From Candidatus Iainarchaeum sp. (lineage in GTDB: Archaea; Iainarchaeota; Iainarchaeia; Iainarchaeales; JAFCCJ01), in assembly GCA_043816965.1 (NCBI GenBank), contig JBDRHK010000042.1, positions 1-59,317 of the forward strand: DNA of 59,317 nucleotides, in the 5' to 3' direction. Shown here piece by piece: positions 18,361 through 36,735 of the stretch. The first letter of the stretch is position 1, and every line of letters starts with the position of its first letter. A program made the translations under genes and the position numbers. Under the pieces are notes generated by a model. The model saw only the letters and a list, made by a program, of their open reading frames with translations, was not told the origin of the DNA and ran no database searches.

Positions 18361-21300
18361 ATGGCAAAAAGAGAGGATATTGTTAAACTGGCAGAAACCT
18401 TGATGGGCAACAGGGAAAACATAAGGAATATCGGGATTGTTGCGCATATAGACCATGGGAAATGTGTTTCAGGGAAAACAAACATTGTTTTGGCCAATGG
18501 CACTACTGTAAAAGCTAAGGCGCTCTTTGAATCTGCAGAAACAAACGGGAGAATTGCAGGGAAAACAGGCGATGAGGTTGTTTTTGATATAACTGGCCAG
18601 GGAATTAATGCGGTGAGCTTTAACAAGCAGTCCAAGGACATGGAATTCAGGACAATTTCCCATGCGTGGAAATTGAAAGCGACAGAACCGTTGATTAAAT
18701 TAACGCTTTCAAACGGCCAGGAAATCAGCACAACGCCGGAACACAAATATTTGTGTGCAGGCGATGACGGAACTGTTACTGAAAAGCAGGCAAAGGATGT
18801 GATGGAAAAGGATTTCATTTTATGTCCGAGGCATTTGCCTGCGGAAACACTGGAATTAGAACAGTTCAAAACAGAATTCCTGGATGCCCTTTCAAAAGAC
18901 CCTGGATTTATTGTTAATCTTGATGAACGAAACGCCCTTGAATTGAAGAGGGCCATTCTCTCTTACGGGATGGAAAAACTGAGGAAAGGCATAAGTTCAC
19001 CATATAAAAGCAAATCATTCTACCACTGTGTTTACAACGGGCGATACAGGTTAAATGATTTCAGGAAAATCGCAGGGATTCTAAGATTTAATGCCTTTGA
19101 AAAGATAGCCAAGATAAACTACAGGAAAACATTGAATCAGCACGACCATTCATCGGTCAGTTTAAATCTCCCCAAAACAGAATCTGGGATTATCGAGTTA
19201 TTCTATCTGCTTGGACTTATTTGGGGCGATGGCGGAAAATGTGGAAAGGACATAAGAATAACAAACGAGGACAGGCAAATAATTGAGTCGGTTAAGAGAG
19301 TTTGCAGGGAAGTTTTGGGAACAAAGGCAAAGGAAAGAAAATATGCGGGAAAGGCCACGAGAATAGATTTGAGTGCAGGCATTACTTTTACGAGAATTCT
19401 TGAGCAATTCTTTGAATTTCCATTGAAAAATAAATCCCATTCAATAACCATCCCGAAAATAATCCGGAAAATGCCAAACCATTTCTTAAAAGCGTTCATT
19501 CAGGGTTATTTTGATGCCGATGGTGGCATTGAAATGAGCCGGAGAGCGGCAAGCATTTCAAGCGCATCAAAGCGAATGATTGAAGACCTTTACTCCGCCC
19601 TTTTAAGGTTTGGGTGCATTGCAACAATCTATGGCAAAAAAAACACCCTTTTTGTTTCATCCTCAAACCTAAAACCGTTCAGCGAGAAAGTTGGATTCAG
19701 GCTCGAGAGAAAGCAAATTTCACTGGAAAAAATTCTTTCTCTGTCGGACTCCCCGAACAGAAACACTGATTTGCTTCCGATAAAAAGCATTCTGTTGAAG
19801 CAGACCCGAAAAACCCTGGGGATTCCGCTCAATAAGTTTGCAAAAACACAGGAGGCAATTGAGCTTGGATTGCAGAACATTTATTTGAAAAACTTTTTAG
19901 ATTATGTTAAAACGATTTATTCGTTTATAGGAAATCCAAAAATAAAAAACCAGGAAGCTTGGGATGAACTCCAGGCAATTGAGAAAATATTCTTTAACTG
20001 CTTTACTGCGCGGGTTGAAAAAAAGGGCACCTGCATTGAAGAATTTGTTTACGATTTTACTGTGGAAGGCAACCATAATTTTGTGGGCAATGGGGCGCTT
20101 ATACACAACACCACCCTCACAGACAATCTGGTTGCTGCCGCAGGCCTGATTTCCAAAGAACTGGCAGGAAAGCAGCAGTTCATGGACTATTATGAATTGG
20201 AGCAGGCAAGGGGAATTACCATCAATTCCGCAAATATTTCCCTTGTGCACAAGGTTAAGGGAATTGAATATCTGATTAACATCATCGACACACCAGGCCA
20301 TGTTGATTTTGGCGGGGAAGTTATAAGGGCAATGAGGGCCGTTGACGGGGTTATGCTTGTTGTTGATGCGGTAGAAGGTGTCATGCCTCAGACGGAAACT
20401 GTTGTAAGGCAGGCGCTGAAAGAGAAAGTAAAACCCATGCTTTTCATAAACACGGTTGACAGGCTGGTTAATGAACTGCAGGTTACTGAGAAGGAAATGC
20501 AGGAGAGATTTGTGAAGACCATTGCCCAGGTTAATAATCTGATTAAGAAGAACGTTCCCGAGGAATTTGTTGATGAGTGGAAAGTCAATGCAATGAACGG
20601 AAGCGTTGGATTTGGCTCCGCCTACAATAACTGGGCTGTTTCTGTTCCACAGAAGGAGGAAACAGGCATTGGATTTAAGGAAGTTTACGAATACTGCAAG
20701 CAGGAAAAGCAGAAGGATCTTGCGAAGAAAAGCCCACTGCACGAGACAGTTATCAAAATGATTGTTCAGCACATGCCAAACCCAATGGTCTCCCAGAAAT
20801 ACAGGATTCCCAAAATCTGGAGCGGAGATATGGAAAGTGAAGAGGGAAAGTCTATGGGGAGTTGTGACCCAAATGGCGTGTTTACAATGATGGTCAATGA
20901 TGTTTCTGTCGACGCGCATGCGGGAGATATTGCCACTGGAAGGATTTATTCAGGAACTGTGAAAAAGGGCTCAAAGCTCAGATTAATCGGGAGCCAGAAG
21001 GAGGTCACAATACAGTCTGTTGCGATCTATATGGGCCCTGAAAGGATTACGGTTAGTGAGATCTCTGCAGGAAATATTGGCGCCCTTGTTGGCACAAGGG
21101 ATATTTATGCAGGGGAAACAATTTCCGAAAAAGAGATTAAGGAATTTGAATCATTCTTTTCAACTGCAGAACCTGTTATGACCATCTCTGTTGAGGCAAA
21201 AAGCACCAAGGATTTGCCAAAGCTTATTGAGGTTATAAGGCAGATAACAAAAGAGGATCCCAATATAAAGGCAAGCATTAACCAGGAAACAGGAGAACAT

Positions 21301-22200
21301 TTGTTGAGCGGGATGGGGGAGCTGCATCTTGAGGTCACACAATACCGGATCGAGGTTGACCACAAAATACCAATAACTGTTTCCCCGCCAATTGTTGTTT
21401 ACCATGAGGCAATAAACAAGAGCTCACCTACACTTGAATCCAAGAGCCCAAACAGGCACAACAAGCTTAAGATGCGTGTTGAGCCAATTCCTGCTGAAAC
21501 CCTGAACAACCTTATTGAGTCAAGGCTGAATGTGAAAATCAGGCCTAAGGACAAGGATATTGTTGTGAAATTGCAGGAAATCGGGTTTGACAATGAAAGG
21601 GCAAAAAAAATCTGGTGTGTTCACAATAACAATGTGTTAGTTGACGCCACCAGGGGAATACAGGCGCTGCAGGAAATTAAGGAACTGGTTATACAGGGAT
21701 TTAAGGACGCGATGGATGCTGGTCCGCTGGCAAAGGAGAAGAGCGAAGGGATTCAGGTAATTCTCGAGGATGCAACACTCCATGAGGATGCCATCCACAG
21801 GGGTCCTGCACAACTGCTTCCCACAACAACCAGGGGAATTTATGCCTGCATGCTGAGCGCTGACGCCGTCCTGCATGAGCCAAAGCAGACACTTACAATT
21901 AACGTGCCTGAGGACTTCATGGGTTCGGTTTCAAAGGAATTGGGGTCAAGGAGAACACAGATAAGTGAAATGAGGCAGGAGGGAGATACCTCAATAATTA
22001 TAGGAAGGGCTCCTGTAAAGGAATTGATTGGTTTTAGTGCGGCAATTAGGAGCGCAACTCAAGGTAGGGCAATCTGGACCGCGGAATATGCAGGATATGA
22101 ACTCCTGCCAAGGGAATTGCAGGAGAAGGTCATTAAGGAAGTCAGAACCAGAAAGGGGATGGATCCACAGGTCAAACCTGCGGCATTTTTCCTTGAATAG
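18361..22200 (+). CDS. fusA: elongation factor 2 (aEF-2) precursor containing a 549-aa intein
   Basis: 'NIGIVAHIDHGK' ... 'TTLTDNLVAAAG', 'IDTPGHVDF', and diphthamide-site 'HEDAIHRGPAQ'. The exteins sum to 730 aa. Confidence 0.95.
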   Translation: MAKREDIVKLAETLMGNRENIRNIGIVAHIDHGKCVSGKTNIVLANGTTVKAKALFESAETNGRIAGKTGDEVVFDITGQGINAVSFNKQSKDMEFRTISHAWKLKATEPLIKLTLSNGQEISTTPEHKYLCAGDDGTVTEKQAKDVMEKDFILCPRHLPAETLELEQFKTEFLDALSKDPGFIVNLDERNALELKRAILSYGMEKLRKGISSPYKSKSFYHCVYNGRYRLNDFRKIAGILRFNAFEKIAKINYRKTLNQHDHSSVSLNLPKTESGIIELFYLLGLIWGDGGKCGKDIRITNEDRQIIESVKRVCREVLGTKAKERKYAGKATRIDLSAGITFTRILEQFFEFPLKNKSHSITIPKIIRKMPNHFLKAFIQGYFDADGGIEMSRRAASISSASKRMIEDLYSALLRFGCIATIYGKKNTLFVSSSNLKPFSEKVGFRLERKQISLEKILSLSDSPNRNTDLLPIKSILLKQTRKTLGIPLNKFAKTQEAIELGLQNIYLKNFLDYVKTIYSFIGNPKIKNQEAWDELQAIEKIFFNCFTARVEKKGTCIEEFVYDFTVEGNHNFVGNGALIHNTTLTDNLVAAAGLISKELAGKQQFMDYYELEQARGITINSANISLVHKVKGIEYLINIIDTPGHVDFGGEVIRAMRAVDGVMLVVDAVEGVMPQTETVVRQALKEKVKPMLFINTVDRLVNELQVTEKEMQERFVKTIAQVNNLIKKNVPEEFVDEWKVNAMNGSVGFGSAYNNWAVSVPQKEETGIGFKEVYEYCKQEKQKDLAKKSPLHETVIKMIVQHMPNPMVSQKYRIPKIWSGDMESEEGKSMGSCDPNGVFTMMVNDVSVDAHAGDIATGRIYSGTVKKGSKLRLIGSQKEVTIQSVAIYMGPERITVSEISAGNIGALVGTRDIYAGETISEKEIKEFESFFSTAEPVMTISVEAKSTKDLPKLIEVIRQITKEDPNIKASINQETGEHLLSGMGELHLEVTQYRIEVDHKIPITVSPPIVVYHEAINKSSPTLESKSPNRHNKLKMRVEPIPAETLNNLIESRLNVKIRPKDKDIVVKLQEIGFDNERAKKIWCVHNNNVLVDATRGIQALQEIKELVIQGFKDAMDAGPLAKEKSEGIQVILEDATLHEDAIHRGPAQLLPTTTRGIYACMLSADAVLHEPKQTLTINVPEDFMGSVSKELGSRRTQISEMRQEGDTSIIIGRAPVKELIGFSAAIRSATQGRAIWTAEYAGYELLPRELQEKVIKEVRTRKGMDPQVKPAAFFLE
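18463..20109 (+). mobile_element. intein with LAGLIDADG homing-endonuclease domain inserted in the EF-2 P-loop (GK|C...HN|T)
   Basis: Starts with Cys after AHIDHGK and has block B 'TPEHKYL'. DOD motifs are 'LLGLIWGDGG' and 'FIQGYFDADGG'. It ends 'VGNGALIHN' followed by Thr(+1), which restores GKTTLTD. Confidence 0.9.
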
Positions 22201-24081: not shown

Positions 24082-27000
24082 ATGAAATTTAGAATTATTG
24101 CCCTGTTGTTACTTTTCCTTTTGTCTGCCACAGTGCATGCGCAGGAACGGCAGATTAACTGCGCGGCCGATGACTGGGTTGATGGGGTTGGAAATGGTGA
24201 TTGTGTAAAGTGGGTAAGCGGCCCAGAGGATGTGGCACAGGCAAGCATATCTGTGCTTAACGACCCATCTGATGCAAGGAGGGTTGCTAATGTGCTTAGC
24301 TATGGGCAGGTGAAGTATTATTCAATACCTTTTGGAGGGCTGCAGGCAAGGTATAAATGCCAGGGCTCGGACGATAGAACAACTTTGACTTATGGCGGGC
24401 TTAATGAGACTGTGCTTGACGGAACAATTGATGTATCAACAACAACTCCTGAGAGAAATCCTTCTAGGGATGAATTTGTCTGCACTGTGATTGCAACTTA
24501 CGGCGCCACGAACTATGTCCAGCCGGCCAAACTTTACGAAAAAATATTTACCGATTATTACGTCCTGAACTGCGCAGCGGATTCTGACTGTTTTACAATT
24601 CCGGGGCGGGCCTGTGACAACTCCTACAGGGACCCGGGCAATGAACTTTTGAGCCCTTTGCAATGGCACTGCGTCGATAACGGAACCCCGAGCTTTGTCA
24701 CCCCATTTGTGGAATATCCTGCAGTGGCAAATATCGGGGAAAGTTATGACATAACCGCTTACTACACTGACACTCCTGCACTTGACCCTGTATGGGTGAT
24801 TGTCAATGATTGTGACACTGTTCACTGTATGGAATTTCCCTACTGCGAAAGCGAATACTCTGTCACAAGCCCGGTTAGCTGCCCATTTACCCCCCAGGAT
24901 GGGGAGCAGGGCATAAAAACTTTGTATGTTTTTGTATGTGACGACCAGGATGAATGTTCAGAATATCAGGAAATTTCAATCAGGATAAATTACGTCCCTG
25001 ATGTATCACTCATCGCTTCAGAGGAAACAACCGTCTGGCCTAATTGGGATACCACTTTTACGCCGACTTTTTCTGATATTGACGGGACTATTGCAAATGT
25101 TTCGCTTGATTTTGGTGACGGGGGCCCGCCTGAAATAGGTTTTAATTCTGATGAAGAAATATACCATGCGTATCCACCAAACACTACAGAAACTGCAATC
25201 CCTTATGACGCCATCCTCTCTGTAACCGATAATGATGGTGAAACATCAACATTTACACTACCCATCACCGCAAGCCCTGAGGGGAATTTGCTCCCTGTCC
25301 CGGTATTATCAGTGGCACCTGCTGAAATAACCAGGGAGGGGATTGTCACCTCCACTTACAACTGCACAGACCCTGATGACCCTGACCAGCATTTTGATGA
25401 GGGGATTGATGATTGTTGGATGAATTATGGCTACTGGGACAATATGCCAGATGAGGATGGGGACATCCTTAATGGGATAAGCGGAAGTTTCCCTTACACA
25501 TATATGAATTATACAAATGTACACGCCACAAGAACCAATATTTTAAGGGCATATGACCGTGCAGATGTTATGGTAGAGGTGACAGAAACAATCAATGTAC
25601 TATCAGAGCCGAGATTGAGGATTGTTACTGACACCACGCCATATCGTAGTGAGGATATTTGGGGAAACACCTGGACAGATGGTTTGGGGATTGAGCATGA
25701 AATTCCGACGTTTATCGCTGGAACAACAGTCCATTTTATGGTAGAGGCAATTAATGGGGATTTAAGTAATTACACAAATTTTGATTGGGATTGGGCAAGA
25801 CATGATATTAACCCAAACCCACTTACCGGTTTTTTTGGGGTAGAGGGCAATCCAGAATGCTATTTTTCAGTGGACGATGGAGCCAGCTCAATGGACATTT
25901 ACTGCACCGGAACCTGGTATAAGAGAATAACTTTAAGGGCTCTGGACACCACAAACAATCAGGAAACCCAGACATCATTTATTTTCTACAGTGACACAGG
26001 TCCAGGGCAACATCCATTAACACAGTTCATACCCTATATCCAACAGATTAAGAGCGGATTCAACGGCCCTAACTATGATGCAAGCTGCCAAAGATGGATG
26101 GGAGTAGTTCCTTTAAGTTTAAACTATGATCCTGGGGAAATGCTATTTGAATGCGAGATACACTGGCGTCAGGGACCTAACCATCAACTAACCATTGTTA
26201 ACAACCCCCCGACATATGAATCATTTGCGGAAGCCACATTACTAACTGGGCCTGAAAGCCCATATACAAACTATGGGGACAGAATAAGTTTAGAAAGACC
26301 GTACATAGATGCAGACAATTTCAGCGGCCATGGCAGCAGCCATGGAATTTCGCTCAATATTCTTCCCCAGAATAATCTCCTTCCAAGGGCAAATATCCTT
26401 AGCACTGTTTCCAGCGCACTGCTTATGGAGGATGTGGAAATTATTGGCCAATGCTCTGATTATGATGGGGCTGGAAATGATTTTGATGCCCAGGGAAATA
26501 TGTTTCTCCTGCCCCCTGAATTCTGCCAGATTGATTTTAGGGAGGGAGATGGGTCTGAGAATATGGATCTTGTTATTGAGGACCTTGGATTGGCGGAATG
26601 GATTATTGAATCACCTTGTTCCGATACATACACTATAACTGGGGAGAGAATTGAATTTAATGCAAGCAACAATTGCCTCAGATCTCGTACAGGTAGTGCG
26701 GCAGCTGCCTCAGGGATCCTGACAACCAAGCTTGTAAAAGATGTCAGCCATATTGGAGACAATGATTTCGACATATCTGTTGAGATTATTCCTTCAATAG
26801 ATAATATTCTTAACCACAATTGGTTTCAATATTATCAGGGGATAATACTAGAGGATAATGATAGAAGATTTATTTCGCTGGATGCTTTTCTTTACACCCT
26901 TTCAGCATATGATGATACCTATCGCAGGGACACCTACCATGAAATGGTCTATTATAACCTTTACGAAAACATAACCTATCCAAGAGAGGGACAGGTAAAT

Positions 27001-28572
27001 TCTGAAAGAATAATCCCATATCCAAATAACCGGGGCACTTACTTTAAATTGTCCCGGAGGGGAACTGTTTTGGCCGCATACTATTCCGATGATGGGAGTA
27101 ATTACAAGATACTCGGCTCAAGGGACTTGCGTGATTTAGACGATGCATTGGGCAACCCATTCCAAATCAACCGGGCAGGGATTTTTTTTGGGAACAGTTC
27201 CCCTGCAGGTGGCTTTACCGCAAGCTTTGACAATTTTGAATTCAATGTATACCGATACAGCAAAATCCATCAGTTCAGCAGCGTAGGAAGTTTTGATATT
27301 TTATTAAGTGCAAATGATGGAACAGATATAGCAACAGATACTCTAACAATAGATATTGGTCTTGAAAATAATACTCCCCCTGTGCCAGAAATTATCGAGC
27401 CTGCAGGCCTTGATGCGATAGCTGCATTTAACACCGAAAGTGATACTGAAATTACAATCAGCGGTACTGCTACTGACAGCGGGGCGAATGAAGGAATTGC
27501 AAGAATTTATTGGGAAACTCCGGTAATGCCTGCCGCAGTATGTGATTTGATTACTGATGCACCAACCAATCCAGATTGTATATTGGATGGCGATGCAATT
27601 AATTGTTCTAACTCACAGACAGATGTTCAAATAAATTCAACAATAATCTGCACCTATGCTGACGGCGACCCTGACTTTAGGGAATTTAATGTTATTTTAT
27701 ATGCGACTGATGAAAGGGGGGGAACAATTGCGTCTGCACCTGCAAGGATAAGGCTAGGGCTTGTTAGTGAGGAGAATGTTGTAAGAATAATGCCCAACGG
27801 AATAACCCCTGCCAATCCAAATCAGGTTAGCAGTACTGTTACATTTGAATTCTTCTGTCCCTTGGGGGATTGTATTGTCACCGGTGTTTGCCTTGCCGCT
27901 TGTGATGAACCTGGCAATTTCACTGAAACAATAGGCCAGGGAAACAGGATTATTTCAAAGGATTTTGATTCAATCAACGGCTTTGATTTCCAAATTACTA
28001 TTTCAGGGGAGCAACTTAATACCGACGGGAGTGTCTCAAATGAAAACGACAGCGAGACAATCCATTACTCAGCCAGCAGTTCTGAGGGGGGCGGCTCATC
28101 ATATCCCAATGATATTCTGGAAATTAGCAGCGCAAGGCTCGGGGAAAATGCCTATAGCTTGGATGATGATTTGGAACTTACAATTTATGTCAGGAATTAT
28201 TCGATTACCACTTATGAACAAACATATTCTGTTGAGCTGAAGGATATGGTTACAGGGAGGATTGCATGGTCAAATATTTATGATGCCTACGAATTCTTAG
28301 CGGCGTCAGAAACAGCTGTCCCTGTTACCATTGACCTTAATGATGAAACGAATGGGGTTGAAAAGGGAAATTACAGGATAATAATTGTGGTTACGCCTGT
28401 GACTGATGCAGGCAACACCGAATATTCTGCCAACAACAAATACTCAAAGCTTTCTGTAGCTATCCTTGAGCCCCAAAGGGCCATGTCTGTGCCAGAAATC
28501 CCGCCAATTTTCATACTGCTGGTACTGGTTTCGGTTTTGTTCGTAATTAACCGGTTTAAAAATAAAGGATAA
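24082..28572 (+). CDS. 1496-aa acidic secreted multi-domain surface protein (Cys-rich N-region, PKD/Ig-like repeats, ConA-like lectin domain, CARDB-like domain, PEI-TM-basic C-terminus)
   Basis: Signal peptide MKFRIIALLLLFLLSATVHA. Has PKD signature 'LDFGDGG...YHAY...SVTDNDGE' and C-terminal 'VPEIPPIFILLVLVSVLFVINRFKNKG'. Confidence 0.85.
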   Translation: MKFRIIALLLLFLLSATVHAQERQINCAADDWVDGVGNGDCVKWVSGPEDVAQASISVLNDPSDARRVANVLSYGQVKYYSIPFGGLQARYKCQGSDDRTTLTYGGLNETVLDGTIDVSTTTPERNPSRDEFVCTVIATYGATNYVQPAKLYEKIFTDYYVLNCAADSDCFTIPGRACDNSYRDPGNELLSPLQWHCVDNGTPSFVTPFVEYPAVANIGESYDITAYYTDTPALDPVWVIVNDCDTVHCMEFPYCESEYSVTSPVSCPFTPQDGEQGIKTLYVFVCDDQDECSEYQEISIRINYVPDVSLIASEETTVWPNWDTTFTPTFSDIDGTIANVSLDFGDGGPPEIGFNSDEEIYHAYPPNTTETAIPYDAILSVTDNDGETSTFTLPITASPEGNLLPVPVLSVAPAEITREGIVTSTYNCTDPDDPDQHFDEGIDDCWMNYGYWDNMPDEDGDILNGISGSFPYTYMNYTNVHATRTNILRAYDRADVMVEVTETINVLSEPRLRIVTDTTPYRSEDIWGNTWTDGLGIEHEIPTFIAGTTVHFMVEAINGDLSNYTNFDWDWARHDINPNPLTGFFGVEGNPECYFSVDDGASSMDIYCTGTWYKRITLRALDTTNNQETQTSFIFYSDTGPGQHPLTQFIPYIQQIKSGFNGPNYDASCQRWMGVVPLSLNYDPGEMLFECEIHWRQGPNHQLTIVNNPPTYESFAEATLLTGPESPYTNYGDRISLERPYIDADNFSGHGSSHGISLNILPQNNLLPRANILSTVSSALLMEDVEIIGQCSDYDGAGNDFDAQGNMFLLPPEFCQIDFREGDGSENMDLVIEDLGLAEWIIESPCSDTYTITGERIEFNASNNCLRSRTGSAAAASGILTTKLVKDVSHIGDNDFDISVEIIPSIDNILNHNWFQYYQGIILEDNDRRFISLDAFLYTLSAYDDTYRRDTYHEMVYYNLYENITYPREGQVNSERIIPYPNNRGTYFKLSRRGTVLAAYYSDDGSNYKILGSRDLRDLDDALGNPFQINRAGIFFGNSSPAGGFTASFDNFEFNVYRYSKIHQFSSVGSFDILLSANDGTDIATDTLTIDIGLENNTPPVPEIIEPAGLDAIAAFNTESDTEITISGTATDSGANEGIARIYWETPVMPAAVCDLITDAPTNPDCILDGDAINCSNSQTDVQINSTIICTYADGDPDFREFNVILYATDERGGTIASAPARIRLGLVSEENVVRIMPNGITPANPNQVSSTVTFEFFCPLGDCIVTGVCLAACDEPGNFTETIGQGNRIISKDFDSINGFDFQITISGEQLNTDGSVSNENDSETIHYSASSSEGGGSSYPNDILEISSARLGENAYSLDDDLELTIYVRNYSITTYEQTYSVELKDMVTGRIAWSNIYDAYEFLAASETAVPVTIDLNDETNGVEKGNYRIIIVVTPVTDAGNTEYSANNKYSKLSVAILEPQRAMSVPEIPPIFILLVLVSVLFVINRFKNKG
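24994..25267 (+). other. PKD domain within the 1496-aa protein
   Basis: 'FSDIDGTIANVSLDFGDGGPPE...EIYHAY...YDAILSVTDNDGETSTFTLPI'. Confidence 0.7.
26599..27246 (+). other. concanavalin-A-like (DUF1349/LamG-like) lectin domain within the 1496-aa protein
   Basis: 'W.IESP...' ... 'GTYFKLSRRGTVLAAYYSDDGSNYKILGS' ... 'AGIFFGNSSPAGGFTASFDNFEF' follows the ConA-like/DUF1349 pattern by recognition. Confidence 0.5.
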
Positions 28573-28602: not shown

Positions 28603-30561
28603 ATGCTCAGAAAATTTTTTGTGCTGGTTTTTGTTTTACTCCTAATTGGTTCTGTTTACGCTGCATGGGTTGTGACAACTAATCCCAGCACTGGAGGAGA
28701 TATTCCTTATGCTATCGCTGTAGATGCAACAGGAGTTTATATTACGGGCAGTGATTCAGCATTAGGTGGGGCTAATTCTCAATGGGCGATTGAAAAAAGA
28801 AGTCTGGATGATGGCAGCCCTCTCTGGAGGGATACAAGTGATTCTGGTTCTGGGTTTGATACAAGTTCTGGAATAGATTCTGATGGAACTAATCTCTATG
28901 TGGTTGGTTGGGCTTATTCAGGAGTTTCAAATTACGAATGGAGGATAGAAAAAAGGGGTGCTAGTACTGGTGATTTAGACACTTTAGCTCCCTGGCCTAT
29001 AACAATAGATCCTGATCCTACAGGCAACCAGGATTCTGCTTATGATGTTGCAATTTACGGTTCAGATATTTATGTTGTAGGAAGTGATTTTTCTACTGAT
29101 GATGAGCAGTGGCGAATTGAAAGAAGGGATGCATTGTCGGGAGCCGAGACATGGGTGCCAATCACCAATAATTTTGGAAATAGGGAAGATATTCCGTTTG
29201 ACATATCTGTTGATTTGAGTGGCGCTTATATAGCTGGCAGGCAATATACTGCCGGGAGGATGCGATGGAGAATTGAGAAGAGGCTTTTGGGGAGTGGGAC
29301 TCTTGATTGGTTCGAGGTTGTCAGTCATAGTGCAAATAATGAGGAAGCTCTTGCAATAACTACTGATGATTCTTATGTTTATACTGCAGGTTTTGACCAG
29401 GATGCAGGGGTTGAACACTGGAGAATTGAGAGAAGGAGAAAAACAGATGGCTTCCTTGAATGGGAGCATTGGGGGGCTGGCCCAGTTCCTACTATTACTG
29501 GGCGTGCAAGGGGTATTGCCGTGGATTCAAGCGGCGTTTATGTTGTGGGTTTTGATTCTTCCTTAGGTTTCCCTGACCATCAATGGAGGGTGGAGAAAAG
29601 GAGATTAGATAATGGGAATCTAATCTGGGGAGAGACCAGTAATCTAATCCCTGGAAATGAGGACGCCGCATATGCTATATCTGTTGACTCTAGCGGAATA
29701 TATGTTGCAGGATATGATTTTATTTGCGGGGAGTCCCAATGGAGAATAGCTAAATGCGATTTCGATGGAACTGGGTGTGATGAGGCAACATTGACAAATG
29801 TTGCCTGCGATGGGGCTTATGTGGGCGAAAGCTGCTCAAATGCGCAGCCTGCAACAATAACCGGCCTTTCTTTAAATGACCCTATTCCAGCAATAACCAT
29901 TGAATATAGTGGTTTCACCAGCAGCCCGCCTGATGAGATATCTATTGATAATTGTGCAAGTTCTGGGCCCGGTACCTACACTCGGGCTGCCGGTCAAATA
30001 GATTGTGTTTCTTCTCCAGGCATTTGTGAGATTTCCTCTTGTTTGATTATCCAGGAAGCTGACTATGAAATAAATATTACGGGGGTAAGAAACTCTACTG
30101 GGGAGAGTTCCTCCTGCCCCCCTGATGAAATTAATGTCCAGCCAGCCGCTATTGTGCCAGGCACAGGGAAAATATTCAAAGTTAGGATTTATGGGGACAC
30201 CACTAACATTGACAATATTGTAAACAAGGAATTTGATGCTTCTGCAACCATGGAAGCTATTGTCGATGCGGGATTTACCGGAAACTGCGCATTTAAGATT
30301 ATGGATATGAAGGGATTAGTTACGTTATTACCCAGCACTGTAGGTGCTTGCGCCGGCACCACTATTGATCGTACCGTGTACGCTGATTGGGGCGCGGGGG
30401 TTTACCTTCTCAAGGTTGAAAATTCAGGGGACCCTTCAATTAACGACGATGTGTTTTTTACTTTAACAGACAGGGCCAAAACCGCAGTTCCTGAAATTCC
30501 TTTCTTTCTTGTTTTAATGGTGCTGATTTCGGTTTTGTTCGTAATCCGCAGATTTAATTAA
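28603..30561 (+). CDS. 652-aa secreted 7-repeat beta-propeller-like protein with Cys-rich linker, Ig-like stalk and PEI-TM-basic C-terminus
   Basis: Signal peptide MLRKFFVLVFVLLLIGSVYA. Seven 'D..G.Y(V/I).G ... W(R/A)IEKR....G...W' repeats. C-terminal 'VPEIPFFLVLMVLISVLFVIRRFN'. Confidence 0.85.
   Translation: MLRKFFVLVFVLLLIGSVYAAWVVTTNPSTGGDIPYAIAVDATGVYITGSDSALGGANSQWAIEKRSLDDGSPLWRDTSDSGSGFDTSSGIDSDGTNLYVVGWAYSGVSNYEWRIEKRGASTGDLDTLAPWPITIDPDPTGNQDSAYDVAIYGSDIYVVGSDFSTDDEQWRIERRDALSGAETWVPITNNFGNREDIPFDISVDLSGAYIAGRQYTAGRMRWRIEKRLLGSGTLDWFEVVSHSANNEEALAITTDDSYVYTAGFDQDAGVEHWRIERRRKTDGFLEWEHWGAGPVPTITGRARGIAVDSSGVYVVGFDSSLGFPDHQWRVEKRRLDNGNLIWGETSNLIPGNEDAAYAISVDSSGIYVAGYDFICGESQWRIAKCDFDGTGCDEATLTNVACDGAYVGESCSNAQPATITGLSLNDPIPAITIEYSGFTSSPPDEISIDNCASSGPGTYTRAAGQIDCVSSPGICEISSCLIIQEADYEINITGVRNSTGESSSCPPDEINVQPAAIVPGTGKIFKVRIYGDTTNIDNIVNKEFDASATMEAIVDAGFTGNCAFKIMDMKGLVTLLPSTVGACAGTTIDRTVYADWGAGVYLLKVENSGDPSINDDVFFTLTDRAKTAVPEIPFFLVLMVLISVLFVIRRFN
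28702..29778 (+). repeat. seven tandem ~52-58-aa protein repeats (propeller blades) with a W-R-I-E-K/R-R core
   Basis: The cores read QWAIEKR, EWRIEKR, QWRIERR, RWRIEKR, HWRIERR, QWRVEKR and QWRIAKC. Each lies about 15 residues after a 'G.Y(V/I).G' strand. Confidence 0.75.
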
Positions 30562-30590
30562 ATTTCCGGATATAATTTCTTGTTGATAAA

Positions 30591-31010
30591 ATGCATGAAA
30601 CTTTTAAACATCAGGCTGATGTAGGGGTAAGGGGAAGGGGGAAAACGCTGGAAGATGCATTTGAGGGTGCCGCAAAGGCGATGTTTTCGGTTATGGTTGA
30701 ATTGCAGGAGGTAAATCCGGAAATTGAGGTTAAATTTGCCGCTGTGGGGGAAGATAGGGAATCACTTTTAATCAATTTCCTTAATGAGCTTTTATTCCAG
30801 ATTGATGTAAATCATATGCTTTTTTCCGAGTTTGGGGTTAAATCCATTGAGAAGAAAAATGGGGAATTTTACCTTAAAGGGAGTGCAAAGGGGGAAAAGA
30901 TTTCTGAAAGGCACAATATTAGGACAGGGGTAAAGGCCGCGAGTTACTCACAGGTTTTTGTCGGGGAAAAGGATGGGGAATTTGTTGCGCAGTGCATTGT
31001 TGATGTTTAG
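30591..31010 (+). CDS. archease (RtcB activator)
   Basis: 'FKHQADVGVRGRGKTLEDAFEGAAKAMF', 139 aa, directly upstream of rtcB. Confidence 0.9.
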   Translation: MHETFKHQADVGVRGRGKTLEDAFEGAAKAMFSVMVELQEVNPEIEVKFAAVGEDRESLLINFLNELLFQIDVNHMLFSEFGVKSIEKKNGEFYLKGSAKGEKISERHNIRTGVKAASYSQVFVGEKDGEFVAQCIVDV

Positions 31011-31029
31011 GTTTTTTTAGGGTGGAATT

Positions 31030-33975
31030 ATGGAATTCAAAAAAGTTGAGGAGGGTATTTTTGAAACCCCAAAAACAGGGAAAATGAAAGTTCCGGGGAG
31101 GATTTTCGCATCTGATGGAATTTTCAGGGATATTGAGCAGGGCGCGAAACAGCAATTGCTGAATGTTGCCGAGCTCCCTGGAATTCAGAAGGCTTCATTG
31201 GGAATGCCGGATATGCACTGGGGATATGGCTTCCCTATTGGAGGGGTTGCTGCATTTGATCTGGAGAAGGGAGTGGTTTCCCCTGGCGGAATTGGTTTCG
31301 ATATCAACTGCCTTAAGGGGGATTCCAGGGTTCTCCACGAACTAGGATATACTAAACCAATTGCTGACTTTGAAAAAACCTGGTTTGATGAATCTATTAA
31401 ATGCGTGAACCCAACGAGCAAAGTTATTGATACTGGACTAAATGCCTTTATGGAATTCAAACCTAGAGGCAAGGTTTTTAATGTAAAAACCGAATCAGGA
31501 AAAGAAATTACTGCAACAGAAGAGCATCCTTTTTTTACAAAAAAAGGGATGGTTAAATTGGGTGGATTGAAAGAAGGGCAGGAAGTTTCTGTTTACTCAT
31601 TCGAAGGCGTTGAATTTACCGAACCCTCAAATAAAATTTTAGTGAGTGAAAATGATGTTAGAAAAAAATATCCTGGAAACGAAAACGGCTTAAGGCAGGT
31701 TCTCAGAAAACTTGAAAATATGAAAATAATGCCCTTAAGGGAAAACAACAAAGAGACGCCATATCTGGTAAAATTGCTGGGATTTATTCAGGGTGACGGA
31801 AATTTGGGTTTTTTGAAAAATGGAGCAGGGCAAATGAGTTTTTACGGGGATAAAGAAGATTTAGAGAAAATACGGGAAGACATTGAAAAGATTGGTTTCA
31901 GAGCTTCGCGAGTTTATCAAAGAAGGAGAAAACACTCCATTAGGACACAGTATGATTTGGTTGAATTCGAAAGAACTGAGTTTTCCATTAGAAGTGGTTC
32001 AAGTGCTTTGGCAACTCTCTTGCTTTGTTTAGGTGCCACTGCAGGAAATAAAACTATAGAAAACTGTGGAATCCCTAACTGGCTTTTTAGGGCACCACTA
32101 TGGATTAAACGGCTTTATCTGGCAAGCTTTTTTGGTGCAGAGCTAAGCAGCCCTTCAAGCGTTACCGGCCATGGATTCAATTTTTATGGGCCGGTTCTTT
32201 CGGTTAACAAAAAGAAACCCAATTTGGCCAATGGGCGTAAATTTGTGAAACAGATAAAAAGATTGCTGGAAGACTTTGGCATAAAGAACAATATAATCAA
32301 CGAACGCGATGACTTTGTAAATAAATCAGGGGAAAAATCCATAAGGTTGAGACTCCAGATTTCCTCAGGCCCAAGCAATCTGATTAAGTTTTACGAAAAG
32401 ATTGGCTTTGAATACAATTCCAAAAAACAGTTTCTTGGCCTTTTAGCTGCCCAGTATTCGATAGAGAAACAGGAGATAATCAAAAGTAGAAAAGAGTGTG
32501 AAATTGAATCAATAAAATTACACAAGAAAGGTTTCGGTGCGAAATCAATCTACTCTAAGCTTAAAGATAAGTATCCTTTTTGCAATCTTAGGTTTATTCA
32601 GAGATCAATTTATGAAAACAGGAAGACCGGCCCAAGGATTGCTTATGATTTTTCCAAATTTGAGGAATTTATCGCGCAAAAAACAGAAGGTTTGGGTAAA
32701 ACCGGCCAGGTCTGGGATAAAATAATTTCTAAGGAGGAAGTAATTCTTAATGAGCCAGTGTATGATTTTAATGTTGCGAACAAGCACCATAATTTTATTG
32801 CAAACTGTTTTGTTGTTTCTAATTGCGGAATCAGGCTGGTGAAAACAAATCTTGAGGAAAAGGACATAAGGCCTAAGTTAAAGGAACTGATTGATGTTTT
32901 GTTTAATTTAATTCCTGCGGGCATTGGGGGGAAAGGAAAGATAAGGATTGGTGAAAATGAATTGAAGGAATTGCTTAACAATGGTGCAAAATGGGCTGTT
33001 GAAAATGGCTATGGATGGGAAAAGGATCTGGATTTCATTGAGGAAAATGGCAGGATGGAAAAGGCAGATGCCGAAAAGGTTTCGAAAAAGGCTTTGCAGA
33101 GGGGAATGCCCCAGACAGGCACTCTTGGGAGCGGGAACCATTTTGTTGAGGTCCAGAAAGTTGAGAATGTTTTTGATGAAGGGGTTGCGAAAAAGTTTGG
33201 TTTGAGTGAAGGGCAGATTGTCGTAATGCTGCACTCCGGGAGCAGGGGATGCGGACATCAGATTGCATCAGATTATATTGAGGTAATGCTGCGCGCGATG
33301 AAAAAATATAATATTTCGGTTCCTGACAGGCAGCTTGCATGCGCACCGATAAATTCTTCCGAAGGGCAGGATTATCTGGCGGCAATGTCTGCTGGCGTTA
33401 ATTATGCATTTGCAAACAGGCAGGCAATGATGCACTGGGTGAGGGAGGGCTTTGCAAAGGTTTTTGGGCAGAGTGCCGAATCTTTGGGAATGGATTTGTT
33501 GTATGATATTGCGCACAATGTGGCGAAGTATGAGAAGCATGAAATTGACGGGAAAGGGAAGGAGGTTTTGATTCACAGAAAAGGTGCTACAAGGGCAATG
33601 GCTGCAGGGAGAAAGGAAAACCCCCCTGAGTATTCTGAAACAGGCCATCCTGCGATAATCCCTGGCTCTATGGGAACCGCATCCTATGTTCTTGTGGGAA
33701 CTGAAAAATGTTTGAATGAGAGTTTTGCTTCAGTTTGCCATGGTGCAGGAAGGGTTATGAGCAGGCATGAGGCAATGAGAAGGAAAAGTGGGGAGCAGGT
33801 AAAGAAGGAACTGGAGGCAAAAGGCGAAGTGATTAGGGGGGCATCCTTTGCTGGTTTGGCTGAGGAGATGCCTGAGGCATATAAGGACATTGATGAGGTG
33901 ATTCGTTCAGTTGAAATCTCAGGAATCGGGAAAAAAGTTGCGAAAATGACTCCTTTAGGGGTTATGAAGGGCTGA
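31030..33975 (+). CDS. rtcB: RtcB RNA 3'-phosphate ligase (tRNA-splicing ligase) precursor containing a 505-aa intein
   Basis: 'MPDMHWGYGFPIGGV', 'GGIGFDIN|C', 'GSGNHF', 'HSGSRG.GHQ', 'HNVAK', 'CHGAGR'. The exteins sum to 476 aa. Confidence 0.95.
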   Translation: MEFKKVEEGIFETPKTGKMKVPGRIFASDGIFRDIEQGAKQQLLNVAELPGIQKASLGMPDMHWGYGFPIGGVAAFDLEKGVVSPGGIGFDINCLKGDSRVLHELGYTKPIADFEKTWFDESIKCVNPTSKVIDTGLNAFMEFKPRGKVFNVKTESGKEITATEEHPFFTKKGMVKLGGLKEGQEVSVYSFEGVEFTEPSNKILVSENDVRKKYPGNENGLRQVLRKLENMKIMPLRENNKETPYLVKLLGFIQGDGNLGFLKNGAGQMSFYGDKEDLEKIREDIEKIGFRASRVYQRRRKHSIRTQYDLVEFERTEFSIRSGSSALATLLLCLGATAGNKTIENCGIPNWLFRAPLWIKRLYLASFFGAELSSPSSVTGHGFNFYGPVLSVNKKKPNLANGRKFVKQIKRLLEDFGIKNNIINERDDFVNKSGEKSIRLRLQISSGPSNLIKFYEKIGFEYNSKKQFLGLLAAQYSIEKQEIIKSRKECEIESIKLHKKGFGAKSIYSKLKDKYPFCNLRFIQRSIYENRKTGPRIAYDFSKFEEFIAQKTEGLGKTGQVWDKIISKEEVILNEPVYDFNVANKHHNFIANCFVVSNCGIRLVKTNLEEKDIRPKLKELIDVLFNLIPAGIGGKGKIRIGENELKELLNNGAKWAVENGYGWEKDLDFIEENGRMEKADAEKVSKKALQRGMPQTGTLGSGNHFVEVQKVENVFDEGVAKKFGLSEGQIVVMLHSGSRGCGHQIASDYIEVMLRAMKKYNISVPDRQLACAPINSSEGQDYLAAMSAGVNYAFANRQAMMHWVREGFAKVFGQSAESLGMDLLYDIAHNVAKYEKHEIDGKGKEVLIHRKGATRAMAAGRKENPPEYSETGHPAIIPGSMGTASYVLVGTEKCLNESFASVCHGAGRVMSRHEAMRRKSGEQVKKELEAKGEVIRGASFAGLAEEMPEAYKDIDEVIRSVEISGIGKKVAKMTPLGVMKG
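31309..32823 (+). mobile_element. intein with LAGLIDADG-type endonuclease domain inserted before the catalytic Cys of RtcB (DIN|C...SN|CGIRL)
   Basis: Starts 'CLKGDSRV' and has block B 'TEEHPFF'. DOD-like motifs are 'LLGFIQGDGNL' and 'YLASFFGAELS'. It ends 'NCFVVSN' followed by Cys(+1). Confidence 0.9.
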
Positions 33976-33995
33976 TTCCCCTCAATTTGCATAAA

Positions 33996-34006
33996 TTTAA
34001 TATATA
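33996..34006 (+). promoter_or_regulatory. TATA-box-like element about 24 nt upstream of the 34025 ATG
   Basis: tttaatatata with no SD-like element before the ATG. Confidence 0.3.
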
Positions 34007-34024
34007 GAAATGCCTTATTCTTAA

Positions 34025-34483
34025 ATGAAAAAATTCTTTGCGGTTTTTATTTTTATTATTTTGGCCTGCTCATTTGTATTTGCCGGAATTGGCTCGCCCA
34101 AAATCTGGGGCGACGGGAAAAATAAGGAAGGGATTATTTATATCGGGACTGATAATTTTGCAAGCATGGCGGCAAAGGGTTCTGATGTTGTTGGGGGGTG
34201 TGGCTTTAAGATTTATGCTGCAGAGGGAACAACACCGTTAATTCCTACCGCAACAGGAATTGTTTCAGGGGATGTTTGTACTGCGGCAGCTGTTGATGTC
34301 AGTTCGCTTGATGAGGGGGTTTACAGGCTGGAGGTTGAGGCAGGGTCGCCAACAGTTGCAGAGGACAGCTATTTTGCAGTGGTTAAAATCATGACCCAGC
34401 CAATTCCTGAAATACTGCCGGTTTTCATTATTCTGATTGTTGTTGTGGTTGCCTTCATAGTGGTCAGGAAAGGCAAAAAATAG
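34025..34483 (+). CDS. 152-aa secreted Ig-like stalk protein with PEI-TM-basic C-terminus
   Basis: Signal peptide MKKFFAVFIFIILACSFVFA. The body aligns with the C-terminal about 100 aa of the 652-aa protein. It ends 'PIPEILPVFIILIVVVVAFIVVRKGKK'. Confidence 0.7.
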   Translation: MKKFFAVFIFIILACSFVFAGIGSPKIWGDGKNKEGIIYIGTDNFASMAAKGSDVVGGCGFKIYAAEGTTPLIPTATGIVSGDVCTAAAVDVSSLDEGVYRLEVEAGSPTVAEDSYFAVVKIMTQPIPEILPVFIILIVVVVAFIVVRKGKK

Positions 34484-34602: not shown

Positions 34603-36735
34603 GTGAAAAAACTCATCTTAATTCTTGCAGTATTATTTGGAATGATTTTTCTAACCAGTTCAGTTTCCGCATGGTTTGTGGGAGTTGGCTGGGACGGGGG
34701 ATATCTGGAAGTTTACAGGGACGGCTATTGGGCAAATTCCCCTGACCCTTATGATTATTATTATGACAACTGGTATTACTATCAGGAACCTTACCGCTAC
34801 AATTATGGCGGGGATTACTACTACTATGAGCCTGGTTGGTATAACTATGATTACTCATGGTATTCAAATCCTTACTCCTATTCCTATTACAACTCCAACT
34901 ATTATTACTATGACAATTATTGGAGTTACTATCCTGGATGGTATAACTATCCATCAATCTACGGCTATTATGGGGGATCTAATTCTCTTGTAGGAAGCTC
35001 CTACCAGTATCCAAAACTTGCGGACTGTTCGGAAATTGAGCTTAATGTTTACGACAAATCAATCCGCGCAGGGGATATGAAGGAGGTTACTGTTTGGGTT
35101 AACAACTACTCAATAAAGAACTTCCAAATCAATTCTGTCAGCGTTTATTTGGACAGTTTTGACCTGGATAAGGGAAGGGAGAACTATGATTCAACAGTTG
35201 CTGCAGGAAAAAGCGGGCAAATTACATTTGAGATTGAGGCAGACAATGATGCCAAAAGCAATACAGTTAATGGAAATGTGAAAATCACCGGCCAGTTTAC
35301 TGACGGGACCGTGTGCAGTGGCGGGGATATTGACAGCGAGAAATTCAGGATTTCGATCAGCGGGGCAACTAAAACCACCCCTGCTCCGGCAACTAATGCC
35401 GCCCCTGCATTTGCCTACAGCACATCAACCATTGTAGAAAGGAGTGGGGAAGGCGGCTGGGTTGATGTTTCTCCGGAAAGAGAGGCAATGGTCGAGGGAG
35501 TCACTTTCGAGGAGCTTGAATCAGGGGATTATATAAGATTTGTTGAAGAGGACAATTACATTGAAGGAAGCTGTGACGGCTTGGGCTTTGTGCCACTTTC
35601 AATCAATCTCCAGGGAGGGGAAGGCAAAACAGAATACCTTTACCTTAGAAACTACACTTATCAGAATTTCTACATTGATTCAGTGGATGTTTATGATTAT
35701 TCGCCTTCATTTGCATCATCCCCTGGGCCAAAGGATTCAATGGTTTACAGCGATTCAAGGGGCAAGATAGGGATTAGCATAGATGCCTATTCCAGCTATG
35801 AGGACGATTACGGAACACTTTATGTTAAGGCAAGGGGGCATTTCCCAAGCGGGAAAACATGTTCCCTTTCACCCCAAAAAGTGGATGTTTACGTAAACAA
35901 CAATTTGGAGAAACTTGGTTGTGATGCCTTTAATTTCAGCGTTCCGGATGTTTTGAGGATTGAAAGCAACGGGGAAATTGATTTGGTTATTGATAACCCT
36001 TCAGATAAGGGGGCGACAATAACCCTTGTTGCCGATGATTTGGACTTGAGTTCAAAATCCATTTACCTTGGCCCTGAAAGCCTGCTTGAGAAAACAATTT
36101 ATGTTTCAAATTTTTCAGGGGAGAGGAGTTTTATCTTTTACAATATTGATATTGAAGGCTGCAGCTTCTCCCAGAGGGTTACTGTGGTCAAGAGGCCTGT
36201 TGCAGATGAGGAACCAACGGGTGAGGGGGTTGAACTGCTTAATGTTGCCTCGAAAATAAATATCGGCGATTCGGCGATGGTTCCTGTCAGCATAAGGAAC
36301 AATCTTGATGAAGACATGTTTGTTGAACTGAAAATTATTGATCTTCCTGATGGGTTCTATGCAAGGCAGATTATTGAGAAAATGCCTGCAAAAAGTTCAA
36401 AAAACTTCAATCTCGAGGTTTTTTCAGGGGATGCTGAGGCAGGCACTTATTCAGGAAAACTCGTTGTTTCTGCAGGTAATAAGGCAATTATCAGGAATAT
36501 TGAATTCAATGTTGTCAAAAGCCCTGAAAGCGGGGAAAGTGTTGAGCAGGAAGAAGGGATAGTTTCCGCAGGAATGGTATCAACTGCACTCGCCATTCTG
36601 GGCGGGGGAACCTTGATTGCGGGAGTAATTATAATCGGCCTGCTTATAGTGCTTTTCATAATTGGGGCAGTAAGTGGGCCAAGCAAGAGAATGAAAAAGA
36701 ATGCAAAAGCGCCTGAAAGCCCTAAAAAGGCTTAG
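34603..36735 (+). CDS. 710-aa secreted protein: extreme Tyr/Trp/Asn-rich N-region + four CARDB/Ig-like repeats + C-terminal TM anchor
   Basis: GTG start preceded by gggggctggggg. Signal peptide MKKLILILAVLFGMIFLTSSVSA. C-terminal TM 'LIAGVIIIGLLIVLFIIGAV' plus a basic tail. Confidence 0.8.
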   Translation: MKKLILILAVLFGMIFLTSSVSAWFVGVGWDGGYLEVYRDGYWANSPDPYDYYYDNWYYYQEPYRYNYGGDYYYYEPGWYNYDYSWYSNPYSYSYYNSNYYYYDNYWSYYPGWYNYPSIYGYYGGSNSLVGSSYQYPKLADCSEIELNVYDKSIRAGDMKEVTVWVNNYSIKNFQINSVSVYLDSFDLDKGRENYDSTVAAGKSGQITFEIEADNDAKSNTVNGNVKITGQFTDGTVCSGGDIDSEKFRISISGATKTTPAPATNAAPAFAYSTSTIVERSGEGGWVDVSPEREAMVEGVTFEELESGDYIRFVEEDNYIEGSCDGLGFVPLSINLQGGEGKTEYLYLRNYTYQNFYIDSVDVYDYSPSFASSPGPKDSMVYSDSRGKIGISIDAYSSYEDDYGTLYVKARGHFPSGKTCSLSPQKVDVYVNNNLEKLGCDAFNFSVPDVLRIESNGEIDLVIDNPSDKGATITLVADDLDLSSKSIYLGPESLLEKTIYVSNFSGERSFIFYNIDIEGCSFSQRVTVVKRPVADEEPTGEGVELLNVASKINIGDSAMVPVSIRNNLDEDMFVELKIIDLPDGFYARQIIEKMPAKSSKNFNLEVFSGDAEAGTYSGKLVVSAGNKAIIRNIEFNVVKSPESGESVEQEEGIVSAGMVSTALAILGGGTLIAGVIIIGLLIVLFIIGAVSGPSKRMKKNAKAPESPKKA
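34699..34980 (+). repeat. low-complexity aromatic region (37 Tyr + 6 Trp in 93 residues by my count)
   Basis: GYLEVYRDGYWANSPDPYDYYYDNWYYYQEPYRYNYGGDYYYYEPGWYNYDYSWYSNPYSYSYYNSNYYYYDNYWSYYPGWYNYPSIYGYYGG. Confidence 0.85.

Follow-up and report, generated by a model that had tools for sequence, protein, structure and literature searches.

A recurrent Pro-Glu-Ile tail on surface proteins of an Iainarchaeum-like archaeon: a candidate C-terminal sorting signal

Three predicted surface proteins encoded close together in an archaeal contig end in the same short module, and the question raised by this locus is whether that module is a signal read by an enzyme or an ordinary membrane anchor. The 59,317-nucleotide (nt) stretch analyzed here (the window) derives from a Candidatus Iainarchaeum-like DPANN archaeon; its SecY is 94% identical to that of the metagenome-assembled genome (MAG) JAFCCJ01 (Candidatus Iainarchaeum), and its archease is 88% identical. 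Proteins A, B, and C of a small island of surface-protein genes terminate in a Pro-Glu-Ile (PEI) motif, a single hydrophobic helix, and a basic cluster, a module that a first-pass annotation of the DNA had put forward as a candidate archaeosortase-type sorting signal. We find that this tail recurs within genomes, is kept across divergent genomes while the bodies of the proteins change, and has the anatomy of the signals recognized by exosortases and archaeosortases.

Translation reproduces the tripartite module on all three proteins (Table 1). The tails consist of [V/I]-P-E-I-(x)-P, approximately 15 hydrophobic residues, and Arg/Lys residues, and the pattern "P-[ED]-[IVLFM], transmembrane helix, basic residues, end" fits A, B, and C only, that is, three of the 333 stop-to-stop open reading frames (ORFs) of at least 60 amino acids on both strands. 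The N-termini of the three proteins are basic and then hydrophobic, typical of Sec signal peptides when judged by eye, from which a topology is predicted with the body outside, the helix in the membrane, and the basic end in the cytoplasm. The 19-nt identity noted earlier between the tail-coding regions of A and B, TTTCGGTTTTGTTCGTAAT, is exact, and the sequence has exactly two matches in the window, where shuffled sequences predict none.

The motif is short, PE[IL] occurring about once per 1,000 residues in the proteins of the window, and three hydrophobic C-termini might have PEI in front of them by accident or through biased composition. Across 25 DPANN loci, which comprise 436 putative genes and 110,950 residues, the motif was counted 16 times, compared with 4.8 expected from composition. 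Ten of these occurrences lie 23–36 residues from the C-terminus and abut a hydrophobic helix, a position in which arithmetic from the same counts predicts approximately 0.3, and the remaining six are scattered, as chance predicts. The restriction of the full pattern to three of 333 ORFs and the DNA identity between the tails of A and B also speak against accident. The C-terminal excess, together with the reciprocal recognition of tails by sequence profiles described below, refutes a chance origin, to which we attach next to no credence.

Further carriers were found outside the window, in four MAGs that bear the label Iainarchaeum and in two that are called only "archaeon". They contribute eight tails, drawn from archease-centred loci, one degenerate DNA scan, and one additional scan, and bring the total to 11 tails in seven MAGs (A, B, and C of the window; one each in L112, L012, L115, and L143; two each in L123 and L128, the L numbers denoting loci). 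Seven of the eight have P-E-[I/L]-x(0,1)-P and one has P-G-I-P. Over all 11 tails, the first Pro and the Ile/Leu never vary, 10 tails have the Glu, and every tail has a second Pro either right after the Ile/Leu or one residue further on. The "PEI" signature is therefore too short; the longer form is P-E-[I/L]-x(0,1)-P, and it adjoins the helix directly. Within the helix, V-L-x-[S/A]-V-L-F-V-[I/M]-x-R is common to A, B, L112, L115, and L128. A profile of the three window tails, searched against 1,562 ORFs, gave L112 (E = 3e-7), L128 (E = 0.013), and L012 (E = 0.015) as its best non-self matches, and a profile made only of the L115, L123, and L128 tails placed A (E = 0.045) and B (E = 0.091) of the window at the top. 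This evidence is weak but reciprocal, and it suggests that the tails form one family. The degenerate DNA pattern (RTN-CCN-GAR-ATH followed by runs of T at second codon positions) had 104 matches on genome contigs, only one of which was a true C-terminal tail (L012), a yield explained by a pattern too strict for diverged helices; on viral contigs it returned noise only. A word-indexed protein search with the tail alignment gave three candidates, none of which scored.

The bodies to which the tails are joined differ. When the tail was removed and the preceding 110 residues were compared by blastp, at least five groups without significant mutual similarity were recovered: A; B with C; L112; L012; and the PKD-containing proteins of L115, L123, and L128. 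A loose "...P...G-x-Y-x-h-x-h..." precedes all of the aligned tails, without statistical support between groups. The earlier description of the window proteins as otherwise unrelated holds for A, which has no detectable relation to B or C outside the tail, but not for B and C, which share a homologous stretch of approximately 100 residues ahead of the tail (30% identity over 99 amino acids, E = 1.5e-10, blastp). Protein C, composed of a signal peptide, one copy of the last domain of B, and the tail, is the minimal form of the module. Protein A is an orphan giant surface protein: no homologue other than itself was found at E ≤ 0.001 among 5.8 billion proteins, no related locus was found in 185,579 species genomes, and its Pfam PKD match (20.3 bits) is below the cutoff.

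Comparison of the window with L112 indicates that the tail also lies at a boundary. Homology detected by blastn extends from 30484 to 34034 of the window (3187–5212 of L112), beginning 3 nt upstream of the VPEI codons of B, running through the archease and RtcB genes, and stopping at the start of C, and the surface-protein bodies on both flanks of the homologous stretch are completely different in the two genomes. The tail and the housekeeping genes have thus been kept and the protein bodies replaced, in what looks like a cassette-like replacement of surface-protein bodies between conserved housekeeping genes. The 19 nt shared by A and B are compatible with an exchange or a recent duplication of the anchor, and they fit the duplication or gene conversion proposed in the first-pass annotation. 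We suggest that the onset of homology at the tail points to how close relatives diversify their surface proteins.

Eight attributes have been described for tripartite C-terminal sorting signals, which include a position near the C-terminus, several copies per genome, a hydrophobic helix, a terminal basic cluster, N-terminal signal peptides on the carriers, pairs of carriers unrelated outside the signal, and homologues elsewhere that lack the signal or bear another one (Haft). As far as sequences can tell, the PEI tail has all eight, and the exosortase/archaeosortase-type architecture attributed to it at first sight is upheld, on a module now seen to be conserved beyond the window. The motif lies 23–36 residues from the stop in 11 of 11 tails; three copies fall within 10.4 kb of the window, and L123 and L128 have two each. 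The best 15-residue Kyte–Doolittle window of the helix ranges from 2.65 to 3.91 (ten tails scored), and the helix is followed by two to five Arg/Lys residues, more often Lys than Arg, whereas Arg is typical of the signals described. Each of the nine members whose N-terminus is complete begins with a basic and then hydrophobic segment, as judged by eye. Ahead of the tail, A has no significant blastp match to B or C, to L112, to L012, or to the L115 group. The attribute of other C-termini is illustrated by B, most of whose 143 homologues cover approximately half of the protein, its N-terminal propeller part: these homologues end in PEF-like tails, in C-terminal domains of the type IX secretion system (T9SS) type (PF18962), in other anchors, or in nothing, and some of those in other organisms have [I/T]IPEF[P/L] tails. 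According to the same source, signals cut by membrane-embedded enzymes (PEP-, PGF-, and GlyGly-CTERM) have no spacer between motif and helix, and residues conserved within the helix hint at contact with an intramembrane enzyme; the PEI motif likewise adjoins its helix directly.

We hypothesize that the tail is a lineage-specific C-terminal module of the sorting-signal type, found in Iainarchaeum-like DPANN MAGs and processed by a peptidase, and we judge the chances that this is correct to be about even. The module takes the form P-E-[I/L]-x(0,1)-P, a helix of approximately 15–17 hydrophobic residues, and a short terminal Lys/Arg cluster, and its carriers would be Sec-exported, fast-evolving surface proteins. 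After Sec translocation, the helix would act as a stop-transfer sequence, leaving a type I anchor whose basic end faces the cytoplasm; a peptidase embedded in the membrane would then recognize the motif on the outer side and remove the helix, which would probably be replaced by a lipid anchor, as by ArtA. The peptidase would most likely be an archaeosortase, as in the pairs PEF-CTERM/ArtC and PGF-CTERM/ArtA, because this is the family to which PEP, PEF, PGF, and VPXXXP signals are all linked. The DNA encoding the tail would in addition serve as a conserved 3' boundary for the exchange of gene bodies between close relatives.

The tail might instead be a plain type I anchor that is not processed, with the motif acting as a helix N-cap or hinge and kept, as part of a shuffled module, by descent and structural constraint; we place this possibility somewhat short of an even chance. 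A number of observations speak for it and weigh against processing. The closest relative, L112, has GGA where the other tails have the Glu codon GAA, and hence VPGIP with Gly in place of Glu, so that the Glu is not indispensable. The letters VPEI double as an inter-domain linker within A, PPVPEIIEP, and this caveat, entered in the first-pass annotation, stands. Helices are classically N-capped by Ser, Thr, or Asn followed by Pro-Glu, and the S/T/N-P-E of the L115, L123, and L128 tails matches it, so that the conservation could be purely structural. A low-confidence AlphaFold2 model of C (mean predicted local distance difference test [pLDDT] score of 60; helix at residues 2–22, seven strands, helix at residues 130–150; residues 122–126 below 50) would start the C-terminal helix at the Ile of PEI and fits either reading. 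Curated sorting-signal models do not reach their cutoffs with the window tails or with those of the relatives, and the sequence ahead of the motif has no Thr/Ser-rich stretch, unlike many ArtA substrates. Homologues of the B propeller from other lineages, with no known sortase, carry conserved juxtamembrane motifs of their own; P0012, P0017, P0018, P0019, P0026, and P0047, for example, have "L-P-F-Y-x-Q-T-W-F, helix, basic". Conserved motifs before C-terminal helices are thus common in uncultured archaea, and juxtamembrane conservation alone is no proof of processing. A HMMER search of 1.84 billion representative proteins with a 34-position tail profile recovered A and B themselves only, a profile of that length being too short for power at that scale and the empty scan therefore uninformative on absence; metagenome scans with the tail alignment and with the alignment of the C/B domain confirmed nothing, and the spread of the tail beyond the lineage is accordingly unproven. 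Also on the side of the plain anchor is the outcome of the enzyme survey. As the first-pass annotation had stated, the window contains no archaeosortase gene: its multi-pass membrane proteins are limited to an MscS-type channel, SecY, and an EMC3/YidC-like protein, and none is an archaeosortase, exosortase, rhomboid, or CPBP-type candidate. In approximately 0.3 Mb of related DPANN and other archaeal loci, Exosortase_EpsH was absent from the best 25 of 42 Pfam families matched by 60 membrane ORFs; neither negative comes from a targeted archaeosortase search, the one for the related loci resting on a general Pfam scan of membrane ORFs (10, then 60), and since these loci all surround the ribosomal gene cluster, it says little on whole genomes. 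What that scan did match included a rhomboid (L004), an A24 peptidase (L115), M48, M50, PMT_2, and UbiA. The contigs of the PEF-tailed B homologues P0103, P0022, and P0108 have no sortase nearby. A plain anchor is harder to reconcile with the presence of all eight sorting-signal attributes, with an excess of the motif confined to C-termini, and with the retention of four motif positions in tails whose helices are alike in hydrophobicity only and whose bodies are unrelated; nor does it readily account for residues within the helix that are partly conserved between distant groups.

If the tail is a true signal, its reader might be a protease other than an archaeosortase, either a rhomboid or a CPBP/Rce1-type glutamic peptidase, a special case of our hypothesis that we consider unlikely. 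Orphan signals have repeatedly been found paired with such enzymes, rhombosortase reading GlyGly-CTERM and CPBP-type myxosortases reading MYXO-CTERM, and no archaeosortase was seen in the approximately 0.3 Mb examined. A rhomboid gene (L004, 18321–19106; Pfam Rhomboid, E = 1.6e-14) is located in an Iainarchaeum MAG, approximately 7 kb downstream of the SecY gene, but the stretch of the window syntenic with L004 has no rhomboid counterpart. The signals read by CPBP-type enzymes have an invariant Cys, whereas the PEI tails have none, and the letters of the motif resemble those of PEP, PEF, PGF, and VPXXXP, signals that without exception go with exosortases or archaeosortases. Decidedly unlikely, in our estimation, is a still more novel arrangement, an undescribed DPANN system in which an orphan "PEIxP-CTERM" is read by a non-archaeosortase enzyme and its coding DNA is also a conserved recombination handle for swapping entire protein bodies ahead of a fixed anchor, a cassette route to surface variation in host-dependent nano-archaea.

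A literature search returned no paper that ties Iainarchaeota or Diapherotrites to archaeosortases or exosortases, texts that name both archaeosortases and DPANN leave them unconnected, and the supplements of two DPANN genomics papers have no "archaeosortase" or "exosortase" entries. No such sorting system is known to have been described in this lineage, and a PEI-type signal would be an incremental addition unless its enzyme proves new. How proteins are attached to the surface through which DPANN archaea meet their hosts and environment has hardly been studied, and a conserved, lineage-wide C-terminal tag provides a handle with which the surface proteome can be listed from sequence alone and supports a phylogenetic-profiling hunt for the enzyme that reads it. 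Should the reader be an archaeosortase, the range of that family extends into DPANN with a new signal flavor; should it not, a new sorting enzyme awaits discovery.

Table 1. Genes A, B, and C of the window, their PEI tails, and related tails in other MAGs
Feature	Position	Strand	Description
Gene A	24082..28572	+	1496 amino acids; signal-peptide-like N-terminus, weak PKD match, PEI tail; ORF and translation
Tail A	28489..28572	+	V-P-E-I-P-P, hydrophobic helix IFILLVLVSVLFVI, NRFKNKG, stop; translation VPEIPPIFILLVLVSVLFVINRFKNKG, stop
Internal PPVPEIIEP in protein A	27376..27402	+	inter-domain linker with the same VPEI letters; no hydrophobic helix after
19-nt stretch, copy 1	28529..28547	+	within the helix-coding part of tail A
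Gene B	28603..30561	+	652 amino acids; signal peptide, beta-propeller-like repeats ("WRIEKR") in the N-terminal part, beta domain in the C-terminal part, PEI tail
B pre-tail domain	30160..30486 (approximate)	+	homologous to the body of C; "G-V-Y-x-L-x-V-E" strand inside
Tail B	30487..30561	+	V-P-E-I-P-F, helix FLVLMVLISVLFVI, RRFN, stop; translation VPEIPFFLVLMVLISVLFVIRRFN, stop
19-nt stretch, copy 2	30527..30545	+	within tail B; one mismatch in L112
Gene C	34025..34483	+	152 amino acids; signal peptide, pre-tail beta domain in a single copy, PEI tail
Tail C	34403..34483	+	I-P-E-I-L-P, helix VFIILIVVVVAFIVV, RKGKK, stop; translation IPEILPVFIILIVVVVAFIVVRKGKK, stop
L112 (JAFCCJ01) tail			...AVPGIPPIFVLLVLISVLFIIHRFN, stop
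L012 (JBDRIL01) tail			...PVPEIIPLIFFLIIVIIMLILNKKK..., stop
L115 tail			...ESPELHPLLVLGVLAAALFVMRGRKKQTI, stop
L123 tails (two proteins)			...QTPEIPAILT[A/T][V/I]IALAVIVITNRKKK, stop
L128 tails (two proteins)			...ESPELHPLLVLVVLAAVLFVMRNRKKQII, stop, and ...ENPEIHPLLAIALIVGVFAIIKSKAKKS, stop
L143 tail			same as that of the first L128 protein

The island is located between the EF-2/EF-1alpha/S10 genes and L3 and is interleaved with the archease and RtcB genes; the remainder of the window encodes RNA polymerase, ribosomal proteins, SecY, and housekeeping genes. A fourth island protein, D (34603–36735), has a C-terminal helix and lacks the PEI motif. It is secreted and contains an extreme Tyr/Asn/Trp-rich low-complexity stretch (YYYDNWYYYQEPYRYNYGGDYYYY...), and its C-terminal anchor differs from those of A, B, and C in having a Gly/Ala-rich helix and a long Lys/Pro tail. 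The N-terminal half of B (28603–29700) is built of repeated "Y-V-V-G ... W-R-I-E-K-R" units that form a propeller-like domain, found in bacteria and archaea (weak SBBP/LipL53-like matches) in combination with a wide variety of C-terminal anchors; many B homologues bear a precomputed Pfam "RIP" label that looks spurious. Two housekeeping proteins carry intein-like insertions: EF-2 (18361–22200), with 1279 amino acids compared with 729–730 in L121 and L138 and junctions HGK/C and HN/T, and RtcB (31030–33975), with 981 compared with 476 in L112, where the inserted block (approximately 31311–32821) is not present. Ribosomal protein L3 (36918–38198) has a Lys/Glu-rich C-terminal extension of approximately 70 residues, and several ribosomal proteins encoded near it have similar Lys-rich tails.

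Two further features were seen in related islands. PMT_2 proteins are dolichyl-phosphate-mannose protein mannosyltransferase-like, and 9-helix proteins of this type are encoded in archease/RtcB islands of surface-protein genes in three Iainarchaeum MAGs (L123, 14926–16395; L128, 2192–3877; L121, 6939–8486). The gene adjoins a tail-bearing gene in L128 and is within 1.5 kb of one in L123; no tail was seen in L121. These genes provide a hint that the surface proteins of the islands are glycosylated. Other DPANN MAGs encode proteins of 551–564 amino acids that end in a second, likewise conserved type of tail, "...S-T-G-F-V-[A/V]-L-G-Q-A-G-A... helix ...F-R-P" (L113, 4923–6590; L114, 5243–6937; L126, 6360–8042; L138, 12134–13789). 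Their genes are downstream of archease (after RtcB in L138), and the tail has no curated CTERM match.

It remains to place the PEI tail among the known sorting signals, for which we used NCBIfam release 20 with its cutoffs of 23 bits for PEF-CTERM, 24.5 for PGF-CTERM, 19.9 for Loki-CTERM, 22 for GGIII-CTERM, and 24 for Heimdall-CTERM. Tails A and B have no CTERM-type match at E ≤ 10, and for tail C the sole matches are to GGIII- and Heimdall-CTERM, at 13.6 bits; that such domains can be detected in this way is shown by a synthetic PGF tail, for which PGF-CTERM gave 55.6 bits. We reject membership in the PEF-, PGF-, Loki-, Heimdall-, and GGIII-CTERM families, every score being below its cutoff; for PEF- and PGF-CTERM, the two families with which the first-pass annotation had compared the tails, no window tail has a match at E ≤ 10.

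To our knowledge, PGF-CTERM/ArtA is the one system in archaea for which removal of the helix and attachment of a lipid have been proved by experiment. The PEI tail resembles it in being tripartite, with a motif that abuts the helix, and in its occurrence on secreted surface proteins, and the P-G-I variant of L112 is one letter off P-G-F. Unlike PGF-CTERM, the PEI tails have a helix rich in Ile, Leu, and Val rather than Gly and Ala, and they do not match TIGR04126. The L123 tail comes near the cutoff of Loki-CTERM (NF033507) with 18.7 bits, a model that the window tails do not match, and tail C is the one that resembles Heimdall-CTERM (NF045529). These likenesses lie mainly over the helix and fall below the cutoffs, and the two families are named for Asgard archaea, not DPANN.

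The VPEIP of the PEI tails can be viewed as VPEP plus one inserted residue, and it has four of five letters in common with the VPEID of bacterial VPEID-CTERM. Among archaeal signals, the pattern [V/I]-P-x-x-x-P is fitted by VPEIPP (A), VPEIIP (L012), VPGIPP (L112), and IPEILP (C). Read strictly as V-P-x-x-x-P, it fits A, L012, and L112; C (with Ile), L115, the two L128 tails, and L143 (with Ser or Asn) fit P-x-x-x-P only, whereas B (VPEIPF) and the L123 tails (TPEIPA) fit neither. The VPXXXP-, PEP-, and VPEID-CTERM models gave no NCBIfam match at E ≤ 10, in searches for which these models had no positive control. VPXXXP-CTERM has been paired with archaeosortase B (ArtB).

The closest resemblance is to PEF-CTERM (TIGR03024), reported to be the signal of archaeosortase C (ArtC). 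Both are archaeal and lie at the extreme C-terminus, with [I/V]-P-E-hydrophobic abutting the helix and basic residues after it, and the L128 tail scores 16.2 bits on the model (cutoff, 23). They differ in that the defining Phe of PEF-CTERM is Ile or Leu in 11 of 11 PEI tails and a second Pro is added; when the Ile of tail A was changed to Phe in silico, PEF-CTERM became its sole match, at 13.5 bits. By these comparisons PEF-CTERM is the nearest of the archaeosortase-linked models, as the first-pass annotation had judged in calling PEI closest but not identical to it, and the PEI tail is a candidate orphan flavor of a known kind of signal, one that, judged by these sequences, is absent from NCBIfam release 20.

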